Positions 5,061 to 18,673 of a stretch of 18,970 nt of DNA are shown in pieces. The notes under the pieces are model-generated. The model was not told the DNA's origin and ran no database searches. It saw only the letters and a program-made list of their open reading frames with translations. Source of the DNA: Candidatus Ratteibacteria bacterium (GTDB lineage: Bacteria; Ratteibacteria; UBA8468; B48-G9; DTJG01). The stretch spans positions 1 through 18,970 of the forward strand of contig JBMFLH010000034.1 of the NCBI GenBank assembly GCA_049971295.1, in the 5' to 3' direction. Position 1 is the first letter of the stretch, and each line of letters begins with the position of its first letter. The translations under genes were made by a program, and so were the position numbers.

Positions 5061-6020
5061 ATGCCAGCAAAATTTAATTTTCATCCAGCCGAGTTTTTAC
5101 CATTCAAAGATATCAAGGTGATTGAAAAGGTAAGAAAAATAAAAAAAGCCGATATTTGCAAACATCCGAATAAGAACTTCAAAATTAGCGTCATAGAAGA
5201 CCAGACAGCATTTGTCTTTGCATGGGCGCTTCACATTGTAAGTGGAATCAAGAAAGCCCTTGAAGAAGAAAAAAGGCATGTCATCATTCTTCCTGCGCCA
5301 AATCCCCAGTACGCGCTTGTTGCTGAAATGATTAACCAATTGAATATTTCCTGTAAGCATGTACACACTTTTAATATGGACGAGTACGCAGACGAAAACG
5401 GAAACACAGCTCCAAAAGATTGGAAAGGCGGTTTTCAATACTGGATGTGGCACGATTTTTTCAATCGCATCAAACCCGAACTTAGAATGCCAGAAAAACA
5501 GATACATTTTCCGAGCACAAAAAATGTCAGATATTACAGCAAATTGATTGAAGACCTCGGTGGAGCTGACATCTGCTATGGTGGAATTGGATGGTGCGGG
5601 CACATCGCCTTTTTTGAACCGCATCTTGGTATTGATTATGTCAATCACATTGAAGATTACCTTCAGATTGGCTCAAGAATCGTTGATCTTCATCCCATCA
5701 CATTGTGTCAGAACAGCCTTTTTGCTGATGCTGGTTGTTCTGGTGATATTGCGGCATGTCCGCCAAAGGCAGCGACAATAGGACCAAGGGATCTGAAAAA
5801 TTCTAAACTGGTAAGTTTCTGGAATGGTTTTTCTTATGGAGATGTATCCTGGCAAAGGTTTATTTCACGGCTTGCAGCGCACGGACCTGTTAGTCCACTT
5901 GTTCCAGCAAGTATTCTTCAGATACTAAATAGTGAACTAACTCTTTCAGGTAGTGTTGCTGAGGACTGTAAAACTGAAACAGGCGAAAGACGTATCCCGA
6001 TAAAATTTCCTGAACAATGA
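5061..6020 (+). CDS. Glucosamine-6-phosphate isomerase/deaminase (NagB/6PGL) superfamily protein, divergent
   Basis: Strong SD GGAGGAG. Motifs HTFNMDEY, GGIGWCGHIAFFEP and PASILQ resemble NagB (FNLDEY, GIGxNGHIxFNEP, PASxLQ), but the protein is longer and diverged. Confidence 0.75.
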   Translation: MPAKFNFHPAEFLPFKDIKVIEKVRKIKKADICKHPNKNFKISVIEDQTAFVFAWALHIVSGIKKALEEEKRHVIILPAPNPQYALVAEMINQLNISCKHVHTFNMDEYADENGNTAPKDWKGGFQYWMWHDFFNRIKPELRMPEKQIHFPSTKNVRYYSKLIEDLGGADICYGGIGWCGHIAFFEPHLGIDYVNHIEDYLQIGSRIVDLHPITLCQNSLFADAGCSGDIAACPPKAATIGPRDLKNSKLVSFWNGFSYGDVSWQRFISRLAAHGPVSPLVPASILQILNSELTLSGSVAEDCKTETGERRIPIKFPEQ

Positions 6021-7024
6021 AAATGAACATCAACCTTAAAGAAAAAATTATTGATATCCATTCACATTCTGGTGTTTCCCTTAAAGCGTATATGAACCAG
6101 GAATATCCGTATGCAGAAACCATTGAAGGACTGGCATTCAGACAGGAAACATATGGGATTGATGTCAATGTCGTGTTTCCTATGTCTTCTGATTTATTTT
6201 TTGACTTATATTACTTAAAAAAAGGTATATGTAAAAGCGCAAAAAGAGCCCTGTCTCCTGTCCCCTATGAAATTGAAAATTCTCTCTTACTGAAAGAAGT
6301 GTATAGTTTTTGTCCTGAATATGAAGGAAGATTTATTCCCTTTATTTCTGTTGACCCTGGTAGAGTAGTGAAAAAACAGGTAAAAAATATCCTGAATTTT
6401 GAAAAACAATACAAAATTTACGGAATAAAAATCGTCCCCGTAATATGCCAATCAAGTATTCTTTGCCTGCTTGATGAAGGAAAAGTATTTATTGACATTG
6501 CACGAGAAAGAAATTGGCCACTATTGATTCACACAACTGTTCACAAAGAAGAAAAATTTTCTCACGCGCGACTTGTTTTTAAGGTGATAGAAAAAAATCC
6601 TGATGTAAGGTTCTGCCTTGCGCATTGCATCGGATTTGATAAAAATTATCTTAACCTTGCTGATAGCATGGACCATGTATGGGTTGATACTTCTGCATTG
6701 ACAATTCAGGTCCAACTCGCAAGAGAAAATCATCCTATTGCTGCGCCAGAAAAAGACAGATTTGACGCTGATTATTCTGACCACAAAAAGGTACTGAGGT
6801 CGCTTGTTGAAGCATTTCCTGAAACAATCATCTGGGGTACTGATACACCTACCTATTCCTATATTGCAAGAAGAAAGCAGGGAACAGGAAAAGATTCTTT
6901 TGTTGAAATATGGCTGAAAGCCACATATATAGACGAGGTAGATGCCCTGAATGTTCTGCCTGAAAACATGAAAATGAACATCGCAAACAAAAACAGTATA
7001 AACTTTCTCTCTGGCGGATTATGA
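6017..7024 (+). CDS. Metal-dependent TIM-barrel hydrolase (Amidohydro_2-like)
   Basis: N-terminal IIDIHSH (HxH), GIKI, LLIH, CLAHCIG, WVDTS and WGTDTP. ATGA overlap with the upstream gene. Confidence 0.8.
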   Translation: MKMNINLKEKIIDIHSHSGVSLKAYMNQEYPYAETIEGLAFRQETYGIDVNVVFPMSSDLFFDLYYLKKGICKSAKRALSPVPYEIENSLLLKEVYSFCPEYEGRFIPFISVDPGRVVKKQVKNILNFEKQYKIYGIKIVPVICQSSILCLLDEGKVFIDIARERNWPLLIHTTVHKEEKFSHARLVFKVIEKNPDVRFCLAHCIGFDKNYLNLADSMDHVWVDTSALTIQVQLARENHPIAAPEKDRFDADYSDHKKVLRSLVEAFPETIIWGTDTPTYSYIARRKQGTGKDSFVEIWLKATYIDEVDALNVLPENMKMNIANKNSINFLSGGL

Positions 7025-7333
7025 AAATCACATTAGATTTTAATGGTAACATCAAAGTATTAGAAGGAAAACATGTACCCCAAGTTGCAGGACCCACAAA
7101 AAGAATTATCACAATATTTAAGAAAACCTGTGGGATGTAAGCCACTGGCTGAAATTGTCAGAGATAAAAAATTGTTCGGCGTTTGTATCGTCATTTCAGA
7201 CCACACAAGAGATGTCCCGAACAAAATTATTCTGCCAGTAGTAATAGATGAATTGTTTGCGTCAGGAGTATCTAAAAAATCCATTTTTATTCTCATAGGT
7301 AATGGTACTCATAGACCAACAACAAAGCAGGAA
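7021..7333 (+). pseudogene. larA: 5' remnant of a LarA-family nickel-pincer-dependent racemase/epimerase
   Basis: ATG 7021 overlaps the upstream stop (ATGA) and reads MKITLDFNGNIKVLEGKHVP. A +1 frameshift in the C4 run 7078-7081 continues into ...LRKPVGCKPLAEIV...CIVISDHTRDVPNKIILP...ILIGNGTHRPTTKQE, matching the LarA N-terminal signatures (PIG..PL, SDxTR, GTHR). About 100 codons remain of a normally ~420-aa protein. Confidence 0.8.
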
Positions 7334-7444
7334 AAGATGGTGGGATATGCAGTTGGTTCAAGTAATTCAATACCAGACTATGTACCGATTGAAAATTATT
7401 TGACAATGCTTGAAACAAATGCAAAATATGGTTTTATTTCATAA
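7327..7444 (+). pseudogene. 3' remnant of a uroporphyrinogen decarboxylase (URO-D/MtaA) family gene
   Basis: GYAVGSSNSIPDYVPIENYLTMLETNAKYG* matches the C-terminal motif of URO-D/methyltransferase-family proteins (GGYILxSxxSIxxxVPxENYxAM). Removing one G at 7342-7344 restores AGKDGGYAVG. Confidence 0.65.
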
Positions 7445-7459
7445 AGACAGGGAGAAGGT

Positions 7460-8524
7460 ATGAAAATCGAAAATCCATCAAAAAAAGAATATGAAAAAAT
7501 TATGCAGTTTCTTGAAGAATCTTTTGACCATTCAAGAGGGTTTTTTCATCTCAGTTTTCCTCAAGCAATGTCAAAAGATACGATGGACTGCGATAATGTT
7601 TTCATCATCAGAGAAAAAAATAGAATTGCATCTCTTGTTGGAATTTTCCCTCAACAAGTTTATTTACGTGGAAGGCAGGCAAATATTGGAGGAATTGGCA
7701 GTGTTTCCACTCACCCTGATTTTAGAAACAGGGGTTACATGAAAATTTTGATGGATTTTTGTATTGATGAGATGAAAAGAAGAAATTACGCATTCTCCAT
7801 CCTTGGTGGAGATAGACAGCGATACAACTTCTGGGGATATGAAACCTGCGGTACAAACGCTGTGATTACTTTTTCCCAGCGATCATTTGAAAAATCAGAG
7901 ATGGCACAAATCCTCCCTACTTTCAGGTACGATGGCTCAGAAGAGATTATTCAGAAAATCAAAGATGTACACGAGGAAATGCCATGTTACATAAAAAGAA
8001 ACACCAAATGGCTCGAAAAATTATTTAACGAAAGAATACACACTCAGCTTTATTACACAAAGAAAGACGACTTTGCGTATGTGGTTGCCATCGGAGAAAG
8101 GACTGAAAGAAAAATTGTTGAAATTGGAGGATGTAAAGAACTCTGGTGTCCGTTGATTTATTCGCTTCTGAAAAGATGGAACAATAATGCAGTGGATGTA
8201 TTATTTCCTGGAAATATTCCAGAATTTAATATCCTGCTTAAACACGCAGCGTGGTTCAGGATTGAACCATTTTTTATGATAAAGATTCTATCGTTTACAG
8301 ATACCATGAAATTTCTTTTCGGAGAGGATTTTCATTATGATTGCATGTTGCAAATGTCTGAAACAAAAGAAGTCATTGGTGATACTGGATGCAAGAAAAT
8401 TATTGAATTTGATGAGAAAACATGGTCAAGAATTCTGTTTGGTCCATCTTTTACAGAAACCCCTGATTGCCTGAGAAAAATCACGCCGGGACAGTTCTAC
8501 TGGTGGTATCTTGACCACATCTGA
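7460..8524 (+). CDS. GNAT-family N-acetyltransferase (Eis-like)
   Basis: SD-like GGGAGAAGG. Acetyl-CoA motif GGIGSVSTHPDFRNRGYM, followed by RYNFWGYE. The 354-aa length fits tandem-GNAT Eis-like proteins. Confidence 0.85.
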   Translation: MKIENPSKKEYEKIMQFLEESFDHSRGFFHLSFPQAMSKDTMDCDNVFIIREKNRIASLVGIFPQQVYLRGRQANIGGIGSVSTHPDFRNRGYMKILMDFCIDEMKRRNYAFSILGGDRQRYNFWGYETCGTNAVITFSQRSFEKSEMAQILPTFRYDGSEEIIQKIKDVHEEMPCYIKRNTKWLEKLFNERIHTQLYYTKKDDFAYVVAIGERTERKIVEIGGCKELWCPLIYSLLKRWNNNAVDVLFPGNIPEFNILLKHAAWFRIEPFFMIKILSFTDTMKFLFGEDFHYDCMLQMSETKEVIGDTGCKKIIEFDEKTWSRILFGPSFTETPDCLRKITPGQFYWWYLDHI

Positions 8525-8532
8525 AAATCAAT

Positions 8533-9759
8533 TTATTCAGAAACAGGATAACCCGCCTGCGCAAGAAGTTCCTTGAGCTTTTTCTGATCATTGAAATCTG
8601 TGCATATCCTGACCTGTTTGTTCTTAATGTCCACCTTTACTGATTTGATGCCATTCTCTGACAAAAGAATATTTTTAATGTTTCTCACACAGCCCTGGCA
8701 GGAAATGTCAGGAACATTGTAAACAAAGCAAAAATTGCTCTTTGTTCTTGAGAACTTAGACTTCATCTGATTGAAGATAAATACAAAAAATATGCCAATG
8801 AGAATCAATGAACTGATAAGAGAAAGCAAGCCCATAAATCTATTATGACTATGATGGAGTGGGTGAATGCCAACATTGAAATTAAACGAAAGTTTATCAA
8901 GAAACAGCCCAAATAACATTGCCCCTATGACTATAGAACCAAGATATATTGCAAGTTGTTTTTTCCCGAGAGTTTTTCCTACAAAAAGCATGGTCACAGA
9001 GTTTGTCGCTGGTCCTGCTATCAAAAAAACGAGACACGCGCCAGGACTTATTCCTTTTGCCGCAAGAGATGCCGCAATTGGTATTGAACCAGTTGCGCAA
9101 ACATACAACGGAATCCCGACAACAAGCATGATTAAGTAAGTCATCAGGCGGTTACCACTGTACATTGATACAATTTGTTCTGGAACAAAATAGGAAATCA
9201 ATCCTCCTATTATTACTCCAAGGAAAATCCATCTGGCAGTTGATTGATAAATTTCCCCAAAGCCATACCTCAATGCCTCTTTTATCCATGCTCCAGATGA
9301 ATGTTCACTGACTGCTGACACTTGTTTCACGCCAGAGGTATCTTCCTTTCCTGAAAAAATATCTGAAATGATCCCTGCCACAAATCCAATAACAACCGAC
9401 GCCAGAATTCTAAAAATCATAAATGTTCCACCCATCAAGCCGTATGTAGCAAATATTGAATCAATTCCTGTTGTTGGTGTTGAAATTAAAAAGGCAAGTG
9501 TGGCTCCTTTGCTTGCTCCTGATTTATACAAACCTGCTGCAGGTGGGATAACTCCACATGAACAGAGTGGAAGTGGCACCCCAAGTAATACTGCTTTCAG
9601 AATTGAAGAAAACCTTTTGTTGCCAAGGTGTTTGAAAACTTTCTCTGGTTTTAAAAAAACGCTGACAAGCCCTGCCACAAGGAAGCCAAACACAAGATAC
9701 ACACTCATCGCCATAAAAAGATTCCAGATTTCCTTAATAATTCCTGCAAATATTTCCAC
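8533..9759 (-). CDS. DUF318/ArsP-type (SO_0444-like) metal permease with His-rich linker and C-terminal HMA domain
   Basis: Multiple hydrophobic segments, the two family motifs PLPLCSCGVIP and LYVCATGSIP, HPLHHSH before the last TM segment, and a C-terminal HMA motif VPDISCQGCV...AGY. GTG start 1 nt after the larE stop. Confidence 0.85.
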   Translation of the reverse strand: MEIFAGIIKEIWNLFMAMSVYLVFGFLVAGLVSVFLKPEKVFKHLGNKRFSSILKAVLLGVPLPLCSCGVIPPAAGLYKSGASKGATLAFLISTPTTGIDSIFATYGLMGGTFMIFRILASVVIGFVAGIISDIFSGKEDTSGVKQVSAVSEHSSGAWIKEALRYGFGEIYQSTARWIFLGVIIGGLISYFVPEQIVSMYSGNRLMTYLIMLVVGIPLYVCATGSIPIAASLAAKGISPGACLVFLIAGPATNSVTMLFVGKTLGKKQLAIYLGSIVIGAMLFGLFLDKLSFNFNVGIHPLHHSHNRFMGLLSLISSLILIGIFFVFIFNQMKSKFSRTKSNFCFVYNVPDISCQGCVRNIKNILLSENGIKSVKVDIKNKQVRICTDFNDQKKLKELLAQAGYPVSE

Positions 9760-9760
9760 T

Positions 9761-10582
9761 TTACTTTTTTAATGGCAGGGTTTTATTCATACTGCCTGTG
9801 CGATAACCTTCAAGGTCCACAGTGATATAGGTATAACCGATTCTTTTCAGTCCTTTTACAATTCTTGTCCTGAATTGAATAATTTTTTCAAAGTCATCAT
9901 CAGATACTTCAATTCTGCAAATATTTCCATAATCTCTGACCCTGACAATTCCAAAATCAATCTTCGCAAAATACTCTTCTGCTTTCAAAATTCTTTTCAA
10001 TGTTTCCTGAGTAATTTTTTCTCCATACGGTATTCTTGAAGCAAGGCATGCCATAGGTGGTTTATTCCATGTCGGCAGACCCATTTCCTTTGAAAGAACT
10101 CTGATTTCTGCCTTTGTCAAATTTGCCATCTGCAGGGGTGAAATTACCCGATACAATGATTTTGCCTTATTTCCAGGTCTGTAATCAGACATGTCGTCAA
10201 CATTCGAGCCATCAGCAATTGCACTGTAATGATATTTTCTTGCAATTTCTGCCATCTGTGAAAAAAGTTCCTTTTTACAGTGAAAGCATCTGTCTGGAGG
10301 ATTGTTTGCCAAATTTTTATCAGTCAGTTTCCTTGATTTTAAGAAAAAAACCTCTACTCCAAGAGATTTTGCAAATTTCTTTGCGAAATTGATATCAGAA
10401 GGAACATCCAGTTCACTTTTTTCAATAAACGCAGCCACATTTTCTTTTCCAAGACAATCCACAGCAATTTTTAATAAAAAGGTGCTGTCAACGCCACCCG
10501 AATATGCAATTAGAATTTTTCCTGCTTTTTGCAAAATTTTTTCTAATGTTCTCTTTTTCTTCTCAATCTCATTCCGCAACAT
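9761..10582 (-). CDS. larE: LarE-family ATP-dependent sulfur transferase (PP-loop), three-Cys [4Fe-4S] type
   Basis: PP-loop AYSGGVDST, NPPDRCFHCK, DGSNVDD..DYRPG, WNKPPMACLASRIPYG, VRVR and DLEGYRTGSMN. Confidence 0.92.
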   Translation of the reverse strand: MLRNEIEKKKRTLEKILQKAGKILIAYSGGVDSTFLLKIAVDCLGKENVAAFIEKSELDVPSDINFAKKFAKSLGVEVFFLKSRKLTDKNLANNPPDRCFHCKKELFSQMAEIARKYHYSAIADGSNVDDMSDYRPGNKAKSLYRVISPLQMANLTKAEIRVLSKEMGLPTWNKPPMACLASRIPYGEKITQETLKRILKAEEYFAKIDFGIVRVRDYGNICRIEVSDDDFEKIIQFRTRIVKGLKRIGYTYITVDLEGYRTGSMNKTLPLKK

Positions 10583-10814
10583 TTACAACTTCCTTAATTT
10601 CAGGCACTCTTTCCTTGATTATTTTTTCCACCCTCATCGTCAGAGTAATCTGAGCAAAAGGACAACCTGCACAACTTCCAACGAGCTTCACCCTTGCAAT
10701 GCCATCTGAAACATCAACAAGCTCACAGTCCCCACCCTCTGCCTGAAGAAAGCTTCTAATTTCCTTCAGGGCATTTTCTACTTTTTCCTTTAATTGCTCA
10801 TTTGAAGCCATCAT
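10569..10814 (-). CDS. Stand-alone Nfu (NifU C-terminal) Fe-S carrier
   Basis: 81 aa, IRSFLQAEGGDCELV...VKLVGSCAGCP (CxxC). SD-like AAGGGG. Start at 10814 or 10811. Confidence 0.9.
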   Translation of the reverse strand: MMASNEQLKEKVENALKEIRSFLQAEGGDCELVDVSDGIARVKLVGSCAGCPFAQITLTMRVEKIIKERVPEIKEVVNVAE

Positions 10815-10829
10815 AGCCCCCTTTATTGG

Positions 10830-11222
10830 TTAAATATGCACCTTTTTTCTTTCTCTATAATCTTTGATCGCTGCCTGCAAACCCTCTTCAGCAAGAAGAG
10901 AGCAGTGTTTTTTTAGCGGTGGAAGTCCTTCAAGCACATCAATCACATCTTGATTTGTAATTTTTTCTGCCTCCTGAAGAGTTTTTCCTTTTGCCAGTTC
11001 TGTAATCACGGAACTGGTGGCAATTGCAGCACCACAACCAAATGTCTCAAATTTTATATCTTCAATGAATTCCTGTCCCTGTTCATTTTTGCCCACCCTG
11101 ATGTATATCCACATGACGTCTCCGCAAACAGGGTTTCCAACCTTTCCTATTCCATCTGGATTTTCAATTCTGCCCATATTTCTTGGATTTTTAAAGTGGT
11201 CCATCAATTTTTCGCTGTACAT
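10830..11222 (-). CDS. iscU: Fe-S cluster scaffold IscU/NifU-N
   Basis: YSEKLMDHFKNPRNMG, GNPVCGD, FGCGAAIATSS and LPPLKKHCS. SD GGAGG. Confidence 0.95.
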   Translation of the reverse strand: MYSEKLMDHFKNPRNMGRIENPDGIGKVGNPVCGDVMWIYIRVGKNEQGQEFIEDIKFETFGCGAAIATSSVITELAKGKTLQEAEKITNQDVIDVLEGLPPLKKHCSLLAEEGLQAAIKDYRERKKVHI

Positions 11223-11255
11223 CTTTCCTCCGTATGCTATCTTCTTTGTTGCTGT

Positions 11256-11292
11256 AAGACACTCAACTGAGCCATCCTGTCATAAATGTCTT
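11256..11292 (-). other. Predicted RNA stem-loop in the nadA-iscU spacer
   Basis: The mRNA reads AAGACAUUUA-UGA-CAGGAUGGC-UCA-GU-UGAGUGUCUU. The outer 10 nt pair (two G-U pairs), with a 3-bp upper stem. No U-tract follows. Confidence 0.45.
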
Positions 11293-11306
11293 CCTCTTTT
11301 TTCCTC

Positions 11307-12215
11307 TTACACATATTCAATCATCCTCTCCAGCGAATTTCTCGCTTTTTCCATTATTTCATCTTCAAGAATAATTTCACTATCCTCATTCTCAAGGCAG
11401 TTTTTCAATTTTTCAAGTGTTGTTTTTTTCATATTAAAACACATTCTTCCTGAACCAAGAGAAAAAAATTCTTTTTCTGGATTTTGTTTTTTCATTCTGT
11501 GAAGAATCCCCTGCTCTGTCCCGACGATAAAAGTTTTCGCTGAAGATACGCTTACCCTTTTCAACATACCTGATGTTGATAGCACAAAATCTGCATTTTC
11601 CTGTATTTCAGGATTACATTCAGGGTGAACGATAATTTCAGCATCAGGATACTGCTGCCTTGCTTTTTTTAAGTCAGAAAGAGTAAACTGCCTGTGAACA
11701 AAACAATATCCATCCCACAAAATTAACTTCTTTTCAGGAACCTGTTTTTGAACAAAATACCCAAGATTTTTATCAGGCAAGAATATTACTGTATCAGAAG
11801 GCACATTTTTAACCACAGATGCTGCGTTTGACGACGTACAACAGACATCACTGACTGCCTTTACTTCAGCAGATGTATTAACATAGGATACGACAAATGC
11901 ACCCGGATACTTTCTTTTTATTTCGACGACATCTTCGACTTTTGCCATATCAGCAAGAGGACATCCAGCATCCGACGCAGGAAGAAGCACCTTTTTCCCT
12001 GGATTTAAAATTTTTGCTGTCTCTGCCATAAATCTTACTCCACAAAGCACTATGATATTTGCCATAGTTTCTCTTGCTTTTCTTGCAAGTTCCAAACTAT
12101 CTCCAACAAAATCAGCGATGTCCTGTATCTCAGGTATCTGGTAGTTATGAGCCAGAATCACTGCGTTTTTGTTTTTTTGTAGATGTTTTATTTTGTCTAT
12201 CAGCAATTCATTCAT
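11307..12215 (-). CDS. nadA: Quinolinate synthase NadA
   Basis: ILAHNYQ, GDSLEL, CGVRFMAETAKILNP, three cluster Cys (AGCPLA, GYCFVH, MCFNMKK), YVNTSA and VHPEC. Confidence 0.97.
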   Translation of the reverse strand: MNELLIDKIKHLQKNKNAVILAHNYQIPEIQDIADFVGDSLELARKARETMANIIVLCGVRFMAETAKILNPGKKVLLPASDAGCPLADMAKVEDVVEIKRKYPGAFVVSYVNTSAEVKAVSDVCCTSSNAASVVKNVPSDTVIFLPDKNLGYFVQKQVPEKKLILWDGYCFVHRQFTLSDLKKARQQYPDAEIIVHPECNPEIQENADFVLSTSGMLKRVSVSSAKTFIVGTEQGILHRMKKQNPEKEFFSLGSGRMCFNMKKTTLEKLKNCLENEDSEIILEDEIMEKARNSLERMIEYV

Positions 12216-13372
12216 TTTTTGTTCCAGAATGGAGACATTTTTCTCAATTTTTCAACGATCTTCGGTAATACAAGCGCAGTTCTTTCAATATCTTCTATTG
12301 TGTTTGCCCTTCCCAGGCTGAATCTTAAAGAACCATGAGCGATTTCGTGAGAAAGCCCGAGCGCAAGAAGAACATGCGATGGCTCAAGCGAACCAGAGGT
12401 ACATGCAGAACCAGAAGACGCGCAAATCCCTTCCATATCAAGATGCAGCAACATACTCTCTCCTTCAACGTATTTCACGCAAATGTTCAATGTATTGTAA
12501 AGCCGTTTTTCTGGATGTCCGTTCACAATGATTTCAGGAATACTTTCAACAAGTTTCTTCTCAAGAAAATCCCTGAGTTGTTCCTCTTTTGATGCATCTT
12601 CTACCATTAAATTTTCAGCAATTTCACATGCCTTTCCTAACCCGATAATTCCAGGAACATTTTCTGTACCAGGTCTTAATCCCTTTTCCTGATGTCCTCC
12701 ATAGGTGATGGGTCTGAATTTTACCCCTTTTCTCACATAAAGAGCACCAATGCCTTTAGGTCCATAAAACTTATGCGCAGATAGCGAAAAAAAGTCAACA
12801 TTCAATTGTTTTACTGAAACAGGCAATTTCCCTGCCACCTGCACGCCATCACAATGGAATGCAATGCCATTTTCTTTTGCAATTCTTCCTATTTCTTCAA
12901 TCGGTTCAATTGTTCCTATCTCGTTGTTCGCCGCCATTATTGAAATAAGAATTGTCTCGTCAGTAATTGCCTTTTTTACATCGTCGGGATCTACAAGACC
13001 ATACTTATCAACAGGAAGATAGGTCACTTTGAATCCAAACTGTTTCTCAAGGAATTTACATGTATTCAATACAGCATGGTGCTCAATCAGAGAGGTAATA
13101 ATGTGATTGCCTTTATTTTTTTTCCACAAACATGTTCCAGTAATCGCGATATTATTGCTCTCTGTACCTCCGGATGTAAAAATGATTTCGTCAGGCGAGG
13201 CATCAAGCATTTTAGCAACACGTGCTCTTGCTTTTTCAACCGCTTCCTTTGTCTTCTGAGAAGGTGTATAGATGGAAGACGGATTGAAAAACATCTCTGT
13301 ATGCCATTTTTTCATCTCTTCAACAACAGCAGTATCGCAAGGTGTCGTCGCATTATGGTCTAAATAAATCAT
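12212..13372 (-). CDS. iscS: Cysteine desulfurase IscS/NifS (type I)
   Basis: IYLDHNATTP, FTSGGTESNN, PLP-lysine motif SAHKFYGPKG, RPGTEN and catalytic SSGSACTS. SD AAGGAG. Confidence 0.97.
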   Translation of the reverse strand: MIYLDHNATTPCDTAVVEEMKKWHTEMFFNPSSIYTPSQKTKEAVEKARARVAKMLDASPDEIIFTSGGTESNNIAITGTCLWKKNKGNHIITSLIEHHAVLNTCKFLEKQFGFKVTYLPVDKYGLVDPDDVKKAITDETILISIMAANNEIGTIEPIEEIGRIAKENGIAFHCDGVQVAGKLPVSVKQLNVDFFSLSAHKFYGPKGIGALYVRKGVKFRPITYGGHQEKGLRPGTENVPGIIGLGKACEIAENLMVEDASKEEQLRDFLEKKLVESIPEIIVNGHPEKRLYNTLNICVKYVEGESMLLHLDMEGICASSGSACTSGSLEPSHVLLALGLSHEIAHGSLRFSLGRANTIEDIERTALVLPKIVEKLRKMSPFWNKK

Positions 13373-13388
13373 TTGTCTCCTTTTTAAG

Positions 13389-13799
13389 TCAAAATTTGAT
13401 TTTTATTGCTCTTACCATACATCCCTTTACGCACAGCATACAGGTAATACACTTTTCATAATCAAAAATTACCTTCTTTGTGGATTGGTCATAATAAAAT
13501 GCGTTTGTCGGACACAGGCCAATGCATACACCGCAGTGAGTACAGACTTTATCATCCTTGATTATATCCTGCTTTAATCTCTGCAGTCCCACATTCTGAC
13601 TCTTCAAATCATTTAATGCCTGTTTTACAATCTTTTCTTCACCAGTAAACACAACAACCATCAGTCCTTCTTTCTGGGGAAGAACCTGCGCCTGAAGAAT
13701 GTTAAATTCAATGTCATACTTTTTCACAAGCGCTGAAATTGTTGGTTTATCAACCAGTTCTTTGGGAAATCTCAAAACAACCCTTTCACTGATAATCAT
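13389..13799 (-). CDS. NIL domain + 2x[4Fe-4S] ferredoxin (MA1822/MJ0099-like partner of the homocysteine sulfurtransferase)
   Basis: N-terminal NIL pattern (LRFPKELVDKPTISALVKKYDIEFNILQA...EG), plus CTHCGVCIGLCP and CITCMLCVKGC. ATGA-coupled to the DUF39 gene. Confidence 0.9.
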   Translation of the reverse strand: MIISERVVLRFPKELVDKPTISALVKKYDIEFNILQAQVLPQKEGLMVVVFTGEEKIVKQALNDLKSQNVGLQRLKQDIIKDDKVCTHCGVCIGLCPTNAFYYDQSTKKVIFDYEKCITCMLCVKGCMVRAIKIKF

Positions 13800-15001
13800 T
13801 GTTTTTTCTCCTTTATTTCAAAGCCCCTCATACGAATTCCTGTTTCCTTTCCAGGCAATTTTGCCACTGGATTTGTCAGTTCAAACTTTCCTTCTAAAAT
13901 CCATCTTTTCAATATCTGGGCGATTCTGCGAGCCATAAAGAAACTGGAGAGAGAACCTACAGGAATTGTTCTATTGCCAAGAGTGATTGTGCCAGAAAAA
14001 AGTTCAGCATAACTTACTTCTTCCAGGACCTCTGGCTTTCTCTCAGGATAACTACTGCTATAATCAACAACAGGCGCAAACATCTTTTCTGCCGGTACCC
14101 CGCACCATGCTGCAACTTTTTCATCTATCACTGGTATTGGAATACCTATCCCAACAACAAGCGTAACTCCATAACCAACAAAAGACGCTCCACGAACAAA
14201 TTCTCCGTTCATCTTCTTTAAGTCGCCAATGACTGCAAGGCTTCCTCCAGGCCTTTTTGGAACTCCTTCAGATGTTCTTTCAACACCAGGACTGTGCTGT
14301 GTTCCGTACCAGGCAACAAAGCCAGTACCTCCGCAAAGAAATATCCTTGTTCCTATACCAGTCGTGTAATATTCAGGGTCCCTGAGAAGCGGCGACAGTA
14401 TTCCTGCGGAACAAAAATTTGCGTTTCCAAAATTCGGCTTCAAAACTCCCATGTATGTGTAAAGCATTCTGTCTGAAGAATTAACAGCAACATTATAATT
14501 CTGATAACAATTTCGTGGATTAAACATGATTGCTTCGTTAACATCTCGTAATGAAAAATAACTCTTCAGTTCTTTCCTTGGATAACAATCTGTACCATAG
14601 GATGTCGCTTCAAGAAGAACCTCTCTGCCATTGACAAGCTCCTCAATCACAAAACCCCCACCATAACTAAATTCACCAGGATAATGAAGATTTCCAGGAT
14701 CATTTGGTGGAAGCGCTGTTGCGCCCAAATAAACATCCACAGCAGCAAGTCCTGTATAAGCGGGAACTCCATTAAGAAAACAGGTTCCGCCACCAATTTT
14801 GATTCTTGGTACAGGATGCCCGAAATTTAAATAGATACTACTTGAACACATCGGTCCAAATGTTCCGGTTGTTACAACATCGATTTCTTTTGCTGCTTTT
14901 GCTTCACCCTTTTTTATCACAATCTCCAGCATTTCTTCTGCTGTAACAACAATTGCCTGGCCCTTTTTTATTTTTTCGTTAATCTCTTCAATGGTCTTCA
15001 T
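13796..15001 (-). CDS. DUF39 homocysteine biosynthesis protein (L-aspartate semialdehyde sulfurtransferase, MA1821/MJ0100-like), without CBS domains
   Basis: KTIEEINEKIKKG, DVVTTGTFGPMCSS, GLAAVD.YLGAT, YGGG.VIEELV, GTDCYPR, NPRNCYQNY, TYMG.L, GTQH and GIGIPIP. I moved the start to ATG 15001, which has SD GGAGG at 15010-15006, instead of the track's 15022. Confidence 0.9.
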   Translation of the reverse strand: MKTIEEINEKIKKGQAIVVTAEEMLEIVIKKGEAKAAKEIDVVTTGTFGPMCSSSIYLNFGHPVPRIKIGGGTCFLNGVPAYTGLAAVDVYLGATALPPNDPGNLHYPGEFSYGGGFVIEELVNGREVLLEATSYGTDCYPRKELKSYFSLRDVNEAIMFNPRNCYQNYNVAVNSSDRMLYTYMGVLKPNFGNANFCSAGILSPLLRDPEYYTTGIGTRIFLCGGTGFVAWYGTQHSPGVERTSEGVPKRPGGSLAVIGDLKKMNGEFVRGASFVGYGVTLVVGIGIPIPVIDEKVAAWCGVPAEKMFAPVVDYSSSYPERKPEVLEEVSYAELFSGTITLGNRTIPVGSLSSFFMARRIAQILKRWILEGKFELTNPVAKLPGKETGIRMRGFEIKEKKQ

Positions 15002-15018
15002 CTTGCCTCCTGTATCGA

Positions 15019-15462
15019 TCAAATTGAAAACGTCACCGGTTCATCCATTTGCCTGAATTTTTCACTTTCTCTGACAAAATCCTGTAAGGTGATACTTTTC
15101 AACACTTCATCAACTTTTGCGTTTAACCTTTCCCATACTATCCTTGCGCCGCAATGAGATGAACGGAAACACACCTTCTCATCCTCAAGGCACTCAATTT
15201 TTTTTATTCCCTCAATCGCCTCAATAATTTCATAAAGGGTAATATTTTCAGGCGATTTTGCAAGAAGATATCCACCCCTTTTTGCTTTAATCTTTTTTAT
15301 AATCCCCTTTGTTTTCAATTGCATAAAAATGTGGTCAAGGTATTTCAAAGAAAGATTCTGCCTTTTGCTGATGTCTTTCAGCAACACTGCCTGTTTTTGA
15401 TAATTCATACCAAGTTCAATTAACGCCCTTACTCCGTATCTGACTCGAGTAGATATAAACAT
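15019..15462 (-). CDS. Rrf2-family transcriptional regulator with three Cys (IscR/NsrR-like)
   Basis: MFISTRVRYGVRALIEL, ISKRQNLSLKYLDHI, GGYLLAKSPENITL and C-x6-C-x5-C (ECLEDEKVCFRSSHC). ATG 15462 is preferred because it matches the family N-terminus. Confidence 0.92.
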   Translation of the reverse strand: MFISTRVRYGVRALIELGMNYQKQAVLLKDISKRQNLSLKYLDHIFMQLKTKGIIKKIKAKRGGYLLAKSPENITLYEIIEAIEGIKKIECLEDEKVCFRSSHCGARIVWERLNAKVDEVLKSITLQDFVRESEKFRQMDEPVTFSI

Positions 15463-15482
15463 ATGTCCAAATCCCATTGTCA

Positions 15483-15505
15483 AATTCTATTTATTTAGTG
15501 GGATT
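15483..15505. promoter_or_regulatory. Candidate Rrf2 operator just downstream of the -10 box
   Basis: Imperfect dyad AATCCCA-ctaaataaa-TAGAATT (minus strand; 5 of 7 arm positions symmetric) with an AT-rich centre, overlapping the expected transcription start. Confidence 0.5.
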
Positions 15506-15510
15506 AATTC

Positions 15511-15539
15511 ATTATATGTCTTTGTATCCGGTCTGTCAA
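15511..15539 (-). promoter_or_regulatory. Consensus sigma70 promoter of the rrf2-DUF39-iscS-nadA-iscU-nfu-larE-permease operon
   Basis: TTGACA(15539-15534)-17 nt-TATAAT(15516-15511), a perfect consensus. Confidence 0.85.
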
Positions 15540-15634: not shown

Positions 15635-16474
15635 ATGGAGATTGGTTTTTTGACAGCACCTTTTGGAAAGCAAAATCTTGAAGCAGTACTCAATTTTGCA
15701 AAAGACAATGGCTTTCAGAAGATTGAAGTTTTATCTGTGCCTGGCGCAGGCCATATTGACCCGGACCAGGTGATTGCAGATTCTGGAAAGAAATTAAAGA
15801 ATCTTTTTCAAAGTACCGGTGTCAGACCTTCAAGTTATGCATGTTATGCTAATGTTCTGGACCCGGATCCTGAACGCAGACAACTGATTAAAAAACACCT
15901 CGAAAATCTCATTCTGGTGGCAGAATTGACTAATGTTGAAGTTGTCTGTACCATAGCAGGCATGCCTGTGAGTGGGAAAACAAAAATGCAAACCATTGAA
16001 GAGGATGCAGCTCCTTATTTTCAACAGCTATGCATTTTTGCAGCAAAACACAATATAAAAATTGCTCTGGAAAACTGGTTTGCAACAAACTTACAACACC
16101 TCGACCACTGGCAAAAACTTTTTCATCTTGTTCCATCTCCAAACTTTGGCCTCAATTTTGACCCATCACATCTTGTACATCAGGGAATTGATTATCTTTC
16201 TGTAGTAGATGAATTTGCAAGTCGAATTTTTCATACCCATGCAAAGGATTGTGAGATAAAAAAACATGTTTTGCAAAGAATCGGAAACAGAGAAAATGGA
16301 TGGTGGAGATATGTAATACCCGGATTTGGAGTTATTCGCTGGGGTGAGTACATTAGCCGGTTACGAAAAGCTGGTTATAATGGGGTTCTCAGCATTGAAC
16401 ATGAAGATTCGGCAGTAGGCCTTGAAGAGGGTTTTATCATCGGGAAAAAACATCTATCACAATTCATTGCATAA
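15635..16474 (+). CDS. Sugar phosphate isomerase/epimerase (xylose isomerase-like TIM barrel)
   Basis: Metal-ligand motifs IALEN, GLNFDPSH, HTHAKD, PGFG.I.W and LSIEHED. Confidence 0.88.
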   Translation: MEIGFLTAPFGKQNLEAVLNFAKDNGFQKIEVLSVPGAGHIDPDQVIADSGKKLKNLFQSTGVRPSSYACYANVLDPDPERRQLIKKHLENLILVAELTNVEVVCTIAGMPVSGKTKMQTIEEDAAPYFQQLCIFAAKHNIKIALENWFATNLQHLDHWQKLFHLVPSPNFGLNFDPSHLVHQGIDYLSVVDEFASRIFHTHAKDCEIKKHVLQRIGNRENGWWRYVIPGFGVIRWGEYISRLRKAGYNGVLSIEHEDSAVGLEEGFIIGKKHLSQFIA

Positions 16475-16481
16475 AACAGAT

Positions 16482-16510
16482 TTGCCAGTTTAGACATAAT
16501 GAGTTAAAAT
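16482..16510 (+). promoter_or_regulatory. Sigma70 promoter of pyrC, probably leaderless
   Basis: TTGCCA(16482-16487)-17 nt-TAAAAT(16505-16510), then 7 nt to ATG 16518. No SD sequence. Confidence 0.6.
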
Positions 16511-16517
16511 TTTTGTG

Positions 16518-17795
16518 ATGGACATATTGATAAAGAATATCCACATTATTGACCCTTATACAGGAACAGATGCAAGAAGGGATGTTTTGATTTCAGGCCG
16601 CTCTTACTTCAGAATTGATAAAAATATCCATAAAAGAGCATCAAAGGTTATAGACGGAACAAAATTCTGGCTTTTCCCCGGGCTGATTGATATGCACTGC
16701 CACCTTCGCGAGCCAGGAAATGAAGAAGAAGAAACCATCCTTTCCGGTAGTATTTCTGCAGCTGCTGGTGGTTTTACCACTGTGTGCTGTCAGGCAAATA
16801 CTGAACCTGCGATTGATAATAAGGTCGTTGCTGGTTATATTTTTGAAAAAGCCAGGAAATCTCCTATTACAGTACTCCCTTATGGCACAATTACTATTGG
16901 AAGAAAAGGTAGTGTTCTTTCTCCTATGGGTGAACTATCTGAAGCAGGTGTCATTGGATTTTCTGACGACGGAAACTGCGTAATGGATAGTTTGATATTT
17001 AGAAGAGCGCTTGAATATAGTAAAAGATGGGGAAAAATAGTTGTCTCTCACAGCGAGGACCAGATTCTTGCAAAAAACGGTGTGATGAACGAAGGAGTTC
17101 TTTCAACAAAGCTTGGTTTAAGGGGAATTCCCGCAGAAGCAGAGCACATAATGGTTTTCAGGGACATTGAACTTGCGAAACTAACAGGCGCGCAACTTCA
17201 CCTTGCGCATCTCACGACAAAAAAATCTGTAGAACTTGTTAAAGAAGCAAAAAAACAATCAAAAAATATTACATGTGAAGTCACGGTTCATCATCTTGTT
17301 CTCACAGAAGATGCGCTGGCAAATTATGACGCCAATGCAAAAGTCAGTCCGCCGCTTCGTACCCATGAGGACATTAGAGCCCTTATCAAGGGAATAAAAG
17401 AAAACATCATCGACGCTATCGTAACGGACCATGCTCCGCATTCTGAGGAGGAAAAATGCTCAGGAATTGAAAATGCTCCATTTGGAATGATAGGTTTTGA
17501 AACAGCACTCCCACTTGTGATGTCACTTGTTACCTACGGACTCAAACCCATTGACATTCTCCGAAAGATGACAGTTGGCCCTGCGAAAATATTAAAACTC
17601 GACGAAAAACCTATTTCTGACGGCAGTGAGGCAACATGTGTAATATTTGACCCAAAAAAGGAATGGATACTGACAAAAGAAAATATCTTATCTTTAAGCA
17701 AAAATACTCCATTTCTCAATAAGAAATTGGTCGGTAAGGTAATGTGCACCATTTATCGCGGAAACATTGTTTATTCTGACCCAGACCTGCTATAG
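16518..17795 (+). CDS. pyrC: Dihydroorotase (type I)
   Basis: PGLIDMHCHLREPG, AAAGGFTTV, FSDDG, HSED, HLAHLT, CEVTVHHL, KVSPPLR, TDHAPH, APFGMIGFET and SKNTPF. Start at ATG 16518 or GTG 16515. Confidence 0.95.
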   Translation: MDILIKNIHIIDPYTGTDARRDVLISGRSYFRIDKNIHKRASKVIDGTKFWLFPGLIDMHCHLREPGNEEEETILSGSISAAAGGFTTVCCQANTEPAIDNKVVAGYIFEKARKSPITVLPYGTITIGRKGSVLSPMGELSEAGVIGFSDDGNCVMDSLIFRRALEYSKRWGKIVVSHSEDQILAKNGVMNEGVLSTKLGLRGIPAEAEHIMVFRDIELAKLTGAQLHLAHLTTKKSVELVKEAKKQSKNITCEVTVHHLVLTEDALANYDANAKVSPPLRTHEDIRALIKGIKENIIDAIVTDHAPHSEEEKCSGIENAPFGMIGFETALPLVMSLVTYGLKPIDILRKMTVGPAKILKLDEKPISDGSEATCVIFDPKKEWILTKENILSLSKNTPFLNKKLVGKVMCTIYRGNIVYSDPDLL

Positions 17796-17822: not shown

Positions 17823-18673
17823 ATGAATATCATCGTGATTGTATCAGACACCTTAGAAGAGACCTGTTCACAGGAAGATTTATTTTCACTTACACTGATT
17901 GGTCACTATTAACCGCTGAAGAAACAGTAATTGCAGAAATACTGCGGGATAACGGCTACCTTTCAATTTTTATCGCTGATACTCCTCATACAACTGCCAG
18001 GATACAATTATCAGAGAGGGTTTTCTGCATGGTTAAAAATCAGAGGTCAGCAAGGCGATCCAATGATCACCCAGCCAAAAGAAATAGAACCCCTGTTCAA
18101 GAGAAAAACTGAGAAACCCTGAAAGGGTTAAGCAGATGCTCAGAAATAATCTGCTGAGAAATTCTGAAGAAGATTACTTCTGTGCCCAGGCAATGCGCCA
18201 GGCATGCATGTAGATTGAAAAACATTATGCCGGCGAAGAAGTGATTTATCCTGCCTATGGACCCTGTGATTGTTTAACTAAAAGAGAAATACAGCATATC
18301 AGGGCGCATTATGCCGGTGAAGTGACTCTTGTTGATATATGGATGGGACGACCATTTCAAAAAATTGAGAACCTGGGACTGTTTGAAAATACAATCGTTG
18401 ATTCACAACTGACCACGGCTTTTATCACGGAGAACATCACCTGATGGGCAAAAGCATTATCACTGAAAAATATCAGTGCCTTGCTCCACTTTATGAAGAA
18501 GTCACCCATATTCCACTGCTTATGTACATCCCTAAAGCAAAATCAAAAAGAATAAAGAGTTTGTTCAGGTACCAGATATTACTGCCACAATCCTTGACCT
18601 GGTCAGGGCAAAACATGATATCAGAATGGATGGAGTACCCTTTTTGTCTGAGAATCAATATTTGAGAAAATAG
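17823..18673 (+). pseudogene. Decayed sulfatase (alkaline phosphatase superfamily) gene
   Basis: SD-like AGGGGG precedes ATG 17823. Stitching frames gives MNIIVIVSDT / RRDLFTGRF...AEILRDNGY...ADTPH / GYNYQRGF...IRGQ / EEDYFCAQ...ACM*IEKHY...YAGEVTLVD.WMG...LGLFENT / TTDHGFYHGEH..MGK...LYEEVTHIPL / DITATILDL...MDG. There are several frameshifts, an in-frame TAG at 18211-18213, internal deletions and a missing C-terminus. Confidence 0.85.

Follow-up and report, generated by a model that had tools for sequence, protein, structure and literature searches.

In anaerobes, a known layout of genes for iron–sulfur (Fe–S) cluster assembly is the Rrf2/iscR-iscS-iscU-mnmA operon. The minimal iron–sulfur (MIS) system, composed of MisS and MisU, is described in PMC13066941 as having no carrier protein or chaperones. 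Proteins that receive sulfur or clusters from such machinery have been described separately: NifS and NadA form a donor–acceptor pair in Bacillus subtilis, where NifS is dedicated to NadA (PMC13066941); DUF39 acts together with a NIL/ferredoxin protein and COG2122 in a homocysteine pathway of Methanosarcina acetivorans and Desulfovibrio, and is thus known already in bacteria and not in methanogens alone (PMC5764234); and the CxxC-C type LarE of Thermotoga maritima, a sulfur insertase for the nickel-pincer nucleotide (NPN), binds a [4Fe-4S] cluster and turns over with cysteine and Escherichia coli IscS, although the desulfurase genes of that organism lie distant from larE (PMC9283937). Here we describe a nine-gene operon that holds genes of these families side by side, in an 18,970-nt stretch of DNA (hereafter, the window) from a Candidatus Ratteibacteria bacterium, which is one whole contig (JBMFLH010000034.1) of the 1.89-Mb, 92% complete assembly GCA_049971295.1.

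Comparison of this locus with those of its relatives indicates that the operon is probably a housekeeping unit for Fe–S cluster assembly and sulfur delivery, an enlarged MIS-like member of the Rrf2-iscS-iscU(-mnmA) type that gathered its clients, namely NadA, the DUF39/NIL-ferredoxin pair, and LarE. The clients would stand in the operon because each needs a cluster or sulfur, and not because they contribute to a shared product. The preliminary description of this DNA had grouped an IscS/IscU/Nfu machine with its clients under an Rrf2 gene, which the protein families, single gene copies, and conserved order bear out; its further proposal, that the operon is built for NPN supply, was not supported, as described below.

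Composition of the operon

The nine open reading frames (ORFs) all lie on the minus strand, spanning 15483–8533, and were assigned with Pfam and NCBIfam, in order, to Rrf2, DUF39/HcyBio, NIL-ferredoxin, NifS-type desulfurase, NadA, IscU-type scaffold, Nfu, LarE, and an SO_0444-family permease with an HMA domain. The machine consists of a NifS/IscS-type cysteine desulfurase (12212–13372; TIGR03402, 573.6 bits against a cut-off of 530.75; K201 and C324), an IscU/MisU-type scaffold (10830–11222; PF01592; C33, C63, and C107) that is not SufU (SufU model, 68.9 against 92.5), and a stand-alone Nfu Fe–S carrier (10569–10814; PF01106; C48xxC51). Its predicted clients are the DUF39/HcyBio homocysteine sulfur-incorporation protein (13796–15022; PF01837, E 1e-140), a NIL-domain 2x[4Fe-4S] ferredoxin (13389–13799; PF09383 and Fer4) with two CxxCxxCxxxC motifs, the [4Fe-4S] enzyme quinolinate synthase NadA (11307–12215; PF02445 and TIGR00550 over cut-off; C85, C171, and C259), and LarE (9761–10582). 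The expected cluster and catalytic cysteines are all present in the operon proteins. When rrf2 is counted from the ATG at 15462 and the DUF39 gene from the TTG at 15022, the intergenic gaps along the operon are -4, -4, 16, -4, 84, 15, -14, and 1 nt, in agreement with the tight spacing and single exception reported earlier; no terminator-like site was found in the 84-nt nadA-iscU gap.

The genes iscS, iscU, nfu, nadA, larE, and that of DUF39 each gave a single copy in a tblastn search of the genome, iscS with one match. Since SufBD gave no match in this 92%-complete genome either, under a search whose control was positive in 14/14 cases, the operon encodes the only Fe–S machine found there. As in MIS (PMC13066941), a class I desulfurase is combined with a single-domain U scaffold and sufBD is not found; the Rrf2 gene stands first, and the operon, which was the extent of the search for hscAB and iscA, contains neither, and thus no chaperone or A-type carrier gene. 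Unlike MIS, it adds the stand-alone Nfu, DUF39, NIL-ferredoxin, nadA, and larE, and because Nfu is encoded within it, we call it MIS-like rather than plain MIS. It departs from the Rrf2/iscR-iscS-iscU-mnmA layout in that mnmA has moved away in the genus of the window, with the permease in its place.

Conservation among relatives and beyond

The window's genome was compared with 40 relatives (41 genomes, 0.9–2.7 Mb). Around the 27 larE loci of this set, the genes found on the same strand were nfu in 26, nadA and iscU in 21 each, iscS in 20, NIL-ferredoxin in 19, DUF39 in 18, and rrf2 in 14, most misses being contig ends; nfu lies directly upstream of larE in 26 of the 27. We confirm the nine-gene operon, which is conserved throughout the order, and its genes are presumably co-transcribed. 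Its end varies, closing with the permease in 12 loci and with mnmA in eight (a ninth mnmA row, from G023, was dropped as a cross-hit to a ThiI-like gene). Extra members in relatives are cysK, the sulfide-dependent thiazole synthase gene thi4, a ThiI-like gene, and mnmA, and some relatives have the operon interrupted by RseC-like, pilin-like, and HicA-type genes that are unrelated to it.

In twelve of the 41 genomes, none of larB, larC, and a strong larE match was found, and their loci, together with that of G041, provide 13 larBCE-negative loci. In 11 of these nadA is kept in the operon, the other two being cut by a contig edge, and in 10 of the 13 nfu is followed by mnmA at 8–151 nt, a spacing that indicates a clean excision of larE. 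Sister orders show an rrf2-iscS-iscU-larE-mnmA arrangement. In their seven genomes, iscS-iscU-larE occurs in five, without nadA, DUF39, or nfu, larE-mnmA likewise occurs in five, and nadA is on another contig than larE in all seven. The patterns of the sister orders and of the larBCE-negative loci together indicate that larE is tied to iscS/iscU and that nadA joined later and independently.

Outside the phylum, 540 larE loci were confirmed; among the best 80 of them, a non-random sample, larB is nearby in 18, larC in 14, iscS in six (within 7 kb of larE, in other gene orders), and nadA in three. Two WOR-1/Saganbacteria loci (L109:7001-12776 and L111) have the order larE-rrf2-iscS-iscU-DUF318 permease-mnmA-nadA, with a permease 34% identical to that of the window, so that the DUF318 permease family is present in Fe–S operons more than once. 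An Omnitrophota locus (L108; rrf2-cysK-nfu-DUF39-NIL-larE-iscS) is made of similar parts in another order. Passages of papers on larE, [4Fe-4S], cysteine desulfurase, and nickel-pincer describe no such operon.

Two further features of the relatives' operons were observed. IscU of four relatives carries a LAGLIDADG-intein-like insert (L065:1851-3356, L072:8640-10139, L076:8413-9927, and L184:6292-7764), located just before the first ligand cysteine in three and before the second in one, with Pfam intein and LAGLIDADG matches for the three scanned; the iscU gene of the window has no insert, and among the papers listed by a literature search, none was on an IscU intein, judged by titles and the beginnings of abstracts. 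In many relatives from families f2 and f3, iscU and nfu are separated by an RseC/MucC-family gene that is not present in the window (e.g., L048:2648-3061, L055:7161-7556, and L056:8417-8860).

LarE and the genes for the nickel-pincer nucleotide

LarE of the operon (TIGR00268, 315.8 bits against a cut-off of 150) is of the [4Fe-4S]-dependent CxxC-C type, for which cluster binding and formation of the mononucleotide of pyridinium-3,5-bisthiocarboxylic acid (P2TMN) are predicted. Its cysteines C99, C102, and C179 are invariant in 15/15 aligned sequences, and S182, R214, and R216 align with S180, R212, and R214 of Lactiplantibacillus plantarum LarE, its best match in PDB (E 3e-56), which bind the phosphate of the mononucleotide of pyridinium-3,5-biscarboxylic acid (P2CMN). 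The earlier identification of LarE as a sulfur-inserting enzyme is retained, with the motifs adding that it is the cluster-dependent type. The protein resembles T. maritima LarE (PMC9283937) in its SGGxDS loop (SGGVDS here), CxxC-C motif, and phosphate-binding Ser/Arg/Arg, and the genome likewise contains larB, larC, and a GntE2-like client. In contrast to T. maritima, the operon here unites larE with the sole copies found of iscS, iscU, and nfu, whereby the likely native partners of LarE are named. A structure prediction for IscS with LarE scored 0.00 against a mark of 0.32 and is not used as evidence.

The three biosynthetic families of the L. plantarum lar operon (larA-B-C-E) are all encoded in this genome, although the lar genes are unclustered, LarE is of the cluster type and not the sacrificial single-Cys type, and the nearby larA is dead. 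As the preliminary description had noted, larB and larC are outside the window: larB is on contig C8, larC on C25, nadC on C7, and nadB on C45, all over cut-offs. An intact LarA homolog on contig C2 matches T. maritima GntE2 (LarAH20; PDB 4NAR, E 8e-63; PMC7583248), and the alignment with 4NAR shows the cofactor and catalytic residues D, R, H, H, K, H, and K and the E, V, A, H signature, which is that given for GntE in PMC11770544; the binding and catalytic residues are thus kept, and in relatives the gene lies near uxaE, gnd, and SDR genes. Searching plasmids with the GntE-like protein brought nothing further. With larB, larC, nadB, nadC, and a GntE-type client elsewhere in the genome, NPN synthesis is plausible. 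Among the 41 genomes, a strong larE match, larB, and larC are each found in 27; 25 genomes yielded all three, 12 yielded none, and four yielded some of them (G007, G009, G014, and G028; 62–90% complete). That these unlinked genes come and go together argues that LarE does make NPN.

Homocysteine formation and NAD synthesis

The genome has the complete set of the DUF39 pathway, namely DUF39, NIL-ferredoxin, and a COG2122/UPF0280-like gene elsewhere (241.5 bits, below the model cut-off of 271), and DUF39 is found in 37/41 genomes. DUF39 adjoins NIL-ferredoxin as in M. acetivorans and Desulfovibrio, the difference from the pathway in PMC5764234 being that the pair here sits inside an Fe–S operon. 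A Cys/Met pyridoxal phosphate enzyme is also encoded in the genome, so DUF39 may not be the sole route to homocysteine; its gene adjoins cysK, and by reading of the sequence we take it to be MetY-like. The gene order iscS-nadA recalls the B. subtilis NifS–NadA pair, in which the desulfurase gene likewise adjoins nadA; NifS is dedicated there, whereas the single IscS here would have to serve all clients (PMC13066941).

Promoter, candidate operator, and regulator

A sigma-70-type promoter (TTGACA-17-TATAAT; 15511–15539, minus strand) precedes rrf2, as the preliminary description had it, and is the sole 12/12 site in the window. Consensus promoter matches in the window number 51, compared with 48.6 ± 8.8 expected by chance, so the weaker sites are meaningless, and weak internal promoters were rejected for this reason. 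A similar promoter pattern is present ahead of rrf2 in 12/23 loci of relatives (140 nt examined). An imperfect palindrome resembling ATTCTAC-N7-GTAGAAT (15483–15505, minus strand), a candidate Rrf2 operator, lies 6 nt past the -10 box and ahead of the start codon; it recurs upstream of rrf2 with 10–14 of 14 matches in 10/10 family-level loci. Scored with a matrix derived from the nine remaining sites, one of them near-identical to that of the window, which makes the test partly circular, the palindrome is the top site of the genome with a score of 20.3, the runner-up (17.2) being inside an ORF. The genome-wide scan gave no convincing second site near genes of interest, and the 600 nt upstream of larB, larC, nadB, nadC, cysK, thi4, mnmA, and gntE, some of which may be mid-operon, scored only 0.1–5.5.

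The regulator (15019–15462; PF02082 and TIGR00738 over cut-off) is classed as Rrf2 family only, and not as E. coli-type IscR. The equivalog models for IscR and CymR are under cut-off (IscR TIGR02010, 107.8 against 207.55), and the best PDB match is 4CIC (E 7e-23). While the ligand set of E. coli-type IscR is Cys3-His, this protein has three cysteines in a Cys-x6-Cys-x5-Cys arrangement (C98, C105, and C111, numbered in the 154-aa ORF starting at 15483) and an Arg at the position of the His ligand. Most likely, it senses cluster supply through the three cysteines and represses the operon, including its own gene, at the palindrome beside the transcription start.

The permease and nickel supply

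The last gene (8533–9759) encodes a DUF318/ArsP_1 permease with a C-terminal HMA domain (PF03773 and PF00403), which scores 346 bits with NF033936 (cut-off 300) and thus belongs to the SO_0444 Cu/Zn-efflux family, from which its metal and direction of transport are predicted. The founder of the family is needed under Zn or Cu stress, on the basis of Shewanella mutant fitness (PMC3219624), and in three genomes of genus g8 the permease gene follows perR and precedes flavodiiron, rubrerythrin, and ferritin genes. That the permease protects clusters from copper is a reasonable guess. The gene occurs in 24/41 genomes, i.e., 19 of the 27 with larE, three of the 12 without larBCE, and two others, a distribution in which kin are not independent. 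In one relative (G008; L040:5159-6380) it is in three pieces, with the remaining operon intact.

A search of the genome found no CbiM-type transporter. On contig C8 (L198:1192-2483), a His-rich DsbD_2-family membrane protein is encoded directly upstream of nikR, and is a better candidate for nickel uptake than the permease, although import by it is putative. Consequently, the earlier suggestion that the permease is the metal source for NPN is not sustained: the protein is over the cut-off of a Cu/Zn-efflux family, it is not found in 8/27 larE genomes, and a better candidate lies beside nikR. Some members of the aldo-keto reductase family use NPN (PMC13524815), and seven aldo-keto reductase matches were observed on contigs C3, C24, C114, C121, C6, C76, and C105.

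Neighbouring genes

A genus-conserved convergent operon (window 5061–8524) encodes a nagB-like protein, an amidohydrolase, a larA pseudogene with a uroD-like tail (7022–7444, plus strand; DNA alignment with G005), and a GNAT protein, outside the nine-gene operon. In same-genus relatives the order is nagB-like, amidohydrolase, larA, uroD-like, and GNAT, and larA is intact in 6/7 such loci and split in G001; in the intact proteins the specificity positions hold H-F-F and W, a pattern near that of lactate racemase. Near 7330–7337 of the window, at the larA-uroD junction, about 1.87 kb has been deleted between two GGAAAAGA microhomology words, which joins the start of larA to the tail of the uroD-like gene, and the pseudogene has further lesions, namely the loss of 27 nt and a frameshift near the start. 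With three lesions, a real pseudogene is more likely than an error of assembly. The remnant is indeed about 1.2 kb past the operon end, as reported in the preliminary description, but lies on the opposite strand in the convergent operon and is not affiliated with the nine genes; an intact larA homolog, which that description proposed to seek, exists as the GntE-type enzyme on contig C2.

On the other side, a divergent xylose-isomerase-like TIM barrel gene and a dihydroorotase gene (15635–17795) are genus-conserved and apparently unrelated to the operon. They are followed by gene fragments (17824–18665), where relatives carry an intact sulfatase-family ORF of 475–502 aa after pyrC; this is apparently another decaying gene. 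Two same-genus relatives have a 430–436-aa ORF, absent from the window, on the same strand upstream of rrf2 (L037:11976-13268 and L044:2939-4249), which in L037 gives a weak spore-photoproduct-lyase-like radical SAM match.

LarA-family genes in genomes without larB, larC, and larE

The 12 larBCE-negative genomes (84–97% complete) contain a GntE-like gene in nine and a canonical larA in three, with at least one of these in 10. The GntE-type loci are L083–L091 (G021, G017, G039, G015, G032, G024, G026, G038, and G036), and canonical ones are L092 and L093. All 11 LarA-family genes aligned from these genomes are intact and keep all binding residues. In an alignment of 18 GntE-type sequences (nine from larBCE-negative genomes, eight from larBCE-positive relatives, and the copy of the window's genome), the seven key residues and the HEV and AH signatures are unchanged in 18/18. 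The situation thus differs from that of T. maritima GntE2 in that the GntE-type gene is also intact in relatives where larB, larC, and larE are not found. The ratio of nonsynonymous to synonymous substitution rates (dN/dS) of GntE-type genes within the negative genera is 0.047–0.099 in 10/11 pairs, one being saturated, values that are rough as several pairs have dS > 2; nadA of genus g9 gave a similar 0.060–0.098 (six pairs). In the two aligned of the three canonical larA genes, residues are kept and dN/dS is 0.13. The testable orphan LarA-family genes are under purifying selection. Their neighbours are uxaE, gnd, SDR, and HAD protein genes and, for one larA, a FAD-linked oxidase gene.

On a single-gene tree of DUF39 (FastTree, 23 rows), the larBCE-negative genomes occupy four places, so larBCE loss happened three or four times. 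A search for LarC2 found nothing in 13/13 negative genomes, while both positive controls matched. Candidate substitutes were rejected: weak TIGR00268 matches (≤78 bits) were seen in 5/5 larBCE-negative genomes, two similar ones reading as GMP synthase B subunits, and weak LarB matches were PurE-sized. The negative genomes are metagenome-type drafts, in which larBCE may be located on an unbinned element. Passages of the literature discuss genomes with larBCE and without larA; in a search of part of the literature, no paper among those listed was on LarA-family genes without larBCE, NPN salvage, or NPN-independent LarA, although published counts of larA without larBCE may exist.

Discussion

In the housekeeping operon proposed here, IscS would take sulfur from cysteine and clusters would be built on IscU, from which Nfu would pass [4Fe-4S] to NadA for NAD synthesis, to the NIL-ferredoxin of the DUF39 homocysteine pathway, and to LarE. 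LarE probably takes its transferable sulfide from IscS too, as Thermotoga LarE does in vitro with E. coli IscS, and together with LarB and LarC, encoded elsewhere, would provide NPN for the GntE-type mannonate/gluconate epimerase. One client would thus serve NPN synthesis, while the operon as a whole does not appear to be an NPN supply line.

Several observations weigh against this proposal. The link between larE and the operon is not obligatory: nfu-larE-mnmA is apart from rrf2-iscS-nadA-iscU in genus g2, larE is elsewhere in G019, and iscS was not found in the two g7 genomes. IscU scores 185.4 bits with TIGR03419, its best family, just below the cut-off of 187.9. The permease is not an Fe–S client and is left unexplained. 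The best operator scores in the 600 nt upstream of cysK, thi4, and mnmA are 1.7–3.3, compared with 20.3, which does not point to a wider sulfur regulon. The proposal is built on gene comparison (identities, motifs, order, copy number, and presence or absence), from which co-transcription, regulation, the delivery steps, and the activities are predicted.

The alternative put forward in the preliminary description is that NPN supply is what the operon is arranged for, NadA contributing the ring, LarE the sulfur, and the permease the nickel. It gains from the presence of larB, larC, nadB, and nadC in the genome, from the intact larA that converges on the operon end in 6/7 same-genus loci showing larA, from the distribution of the permease (19/27 larE genomes versus 3/12 larBCE-negative ones, kin not being independent), from the lack of a CbiM-type match in the genome, and from the union of larE, the DUF318 permease, and nadA in one iscS operon in the two WOR-1/Saganbacteria loci. 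The lack of conserved order and of larB/larC, which that description had named as telling against it, was not what we found. Nevertheless, we consider this alternative improbable, and for NadA it is largely refuted: nadA is retained in 11/13 larBCE-negative loci, in 7/7 sister-order genomes it does not share a contig with larE, and neither nadA nor the permease tracks the gain and loss of larBCE. Moreover, larB, larC, and the intact client are outside the operon on contigs C8, C25, and C2, and larB, larC, nadB, and nadC, on four other contigs, have upstream operator scores of 0.1–1.3; the permease matches a Zn/Cu-stress family (PMC3219624) and follows perR in three g8 genomes, and nikR adjoins a different, His-rich membrane protein.

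The housekeeping reading must also be set against two others. Only larE-iscS-iscU(-nfu) might be functionally linked, the rest reflecting genome compaction behind a strong promoter and the permease being a recent hitch-hiker that replaced mnmA in the genus, as the small genomes (0.9–2.7 Mb), the pilin-like, RseC-like, and HicA-type interruptions, and the variable last gene (permease in 12/27, mnmA in 8/27) could suggest. However, almost every recurring addition is a sulfur or Fe–S enzyme, and DUF39, NIL-ferredoxin, larE, and iscS are together in another order in the Omnitrophota locus, and hence we find this explanation unlikely. Alternatively, the LarE-like protein could transfer sulfur to tRNA or some other substrate instead of acting in NPN synthesis, and its position next to iscS and mnmA would then be accounted for; larE adjoins mnmA in 8/27 loci of the order and 5/7 of the sister orders, and the PP-loop fold is common to tRNA thiolases. 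This seems highly improbable in view of the co-occurrence of larE with the unlinked larB and larC (all in 25, none in 12, and partial in four; n = 41), the conserved P2CMN phosphate residues, and the best PDB match to L. plantarum LarE (E 3e-56). The operon is, then, a tidy new arrangement of known parts, and not a dedicated nickel-cofactor pathway.

As such, the operon is a modest result, which names IscS, IscU, and Nfu as the likely native partners of a cluster-type LarE, the sulfur supply of LarE having been demonstrated with E. coli IscS (PMC9283937). As a single cassette, it allows delivery to LarE, NadA, and the DUF39 pathway to be tested, and it could aid the expression in E. coli of cluster-type LarE, for which PMC11796402 states a need.

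The orphan LarA-family genes would matter more than the operon itself. Tentatively, and as a possibility that we rate somewhat short of even, the larBCE-negative lineages may be NPN auxotrophs taking the cofactor or a precursor from neighbours, or may have LarA enzymes that work on another cofactor or through an unrecognised biosynthetic route. If this is true, clients that are conserved without cofactor synthesis would mean that NPN is salvaged or that the LarA family has a second cofactor chemistry.

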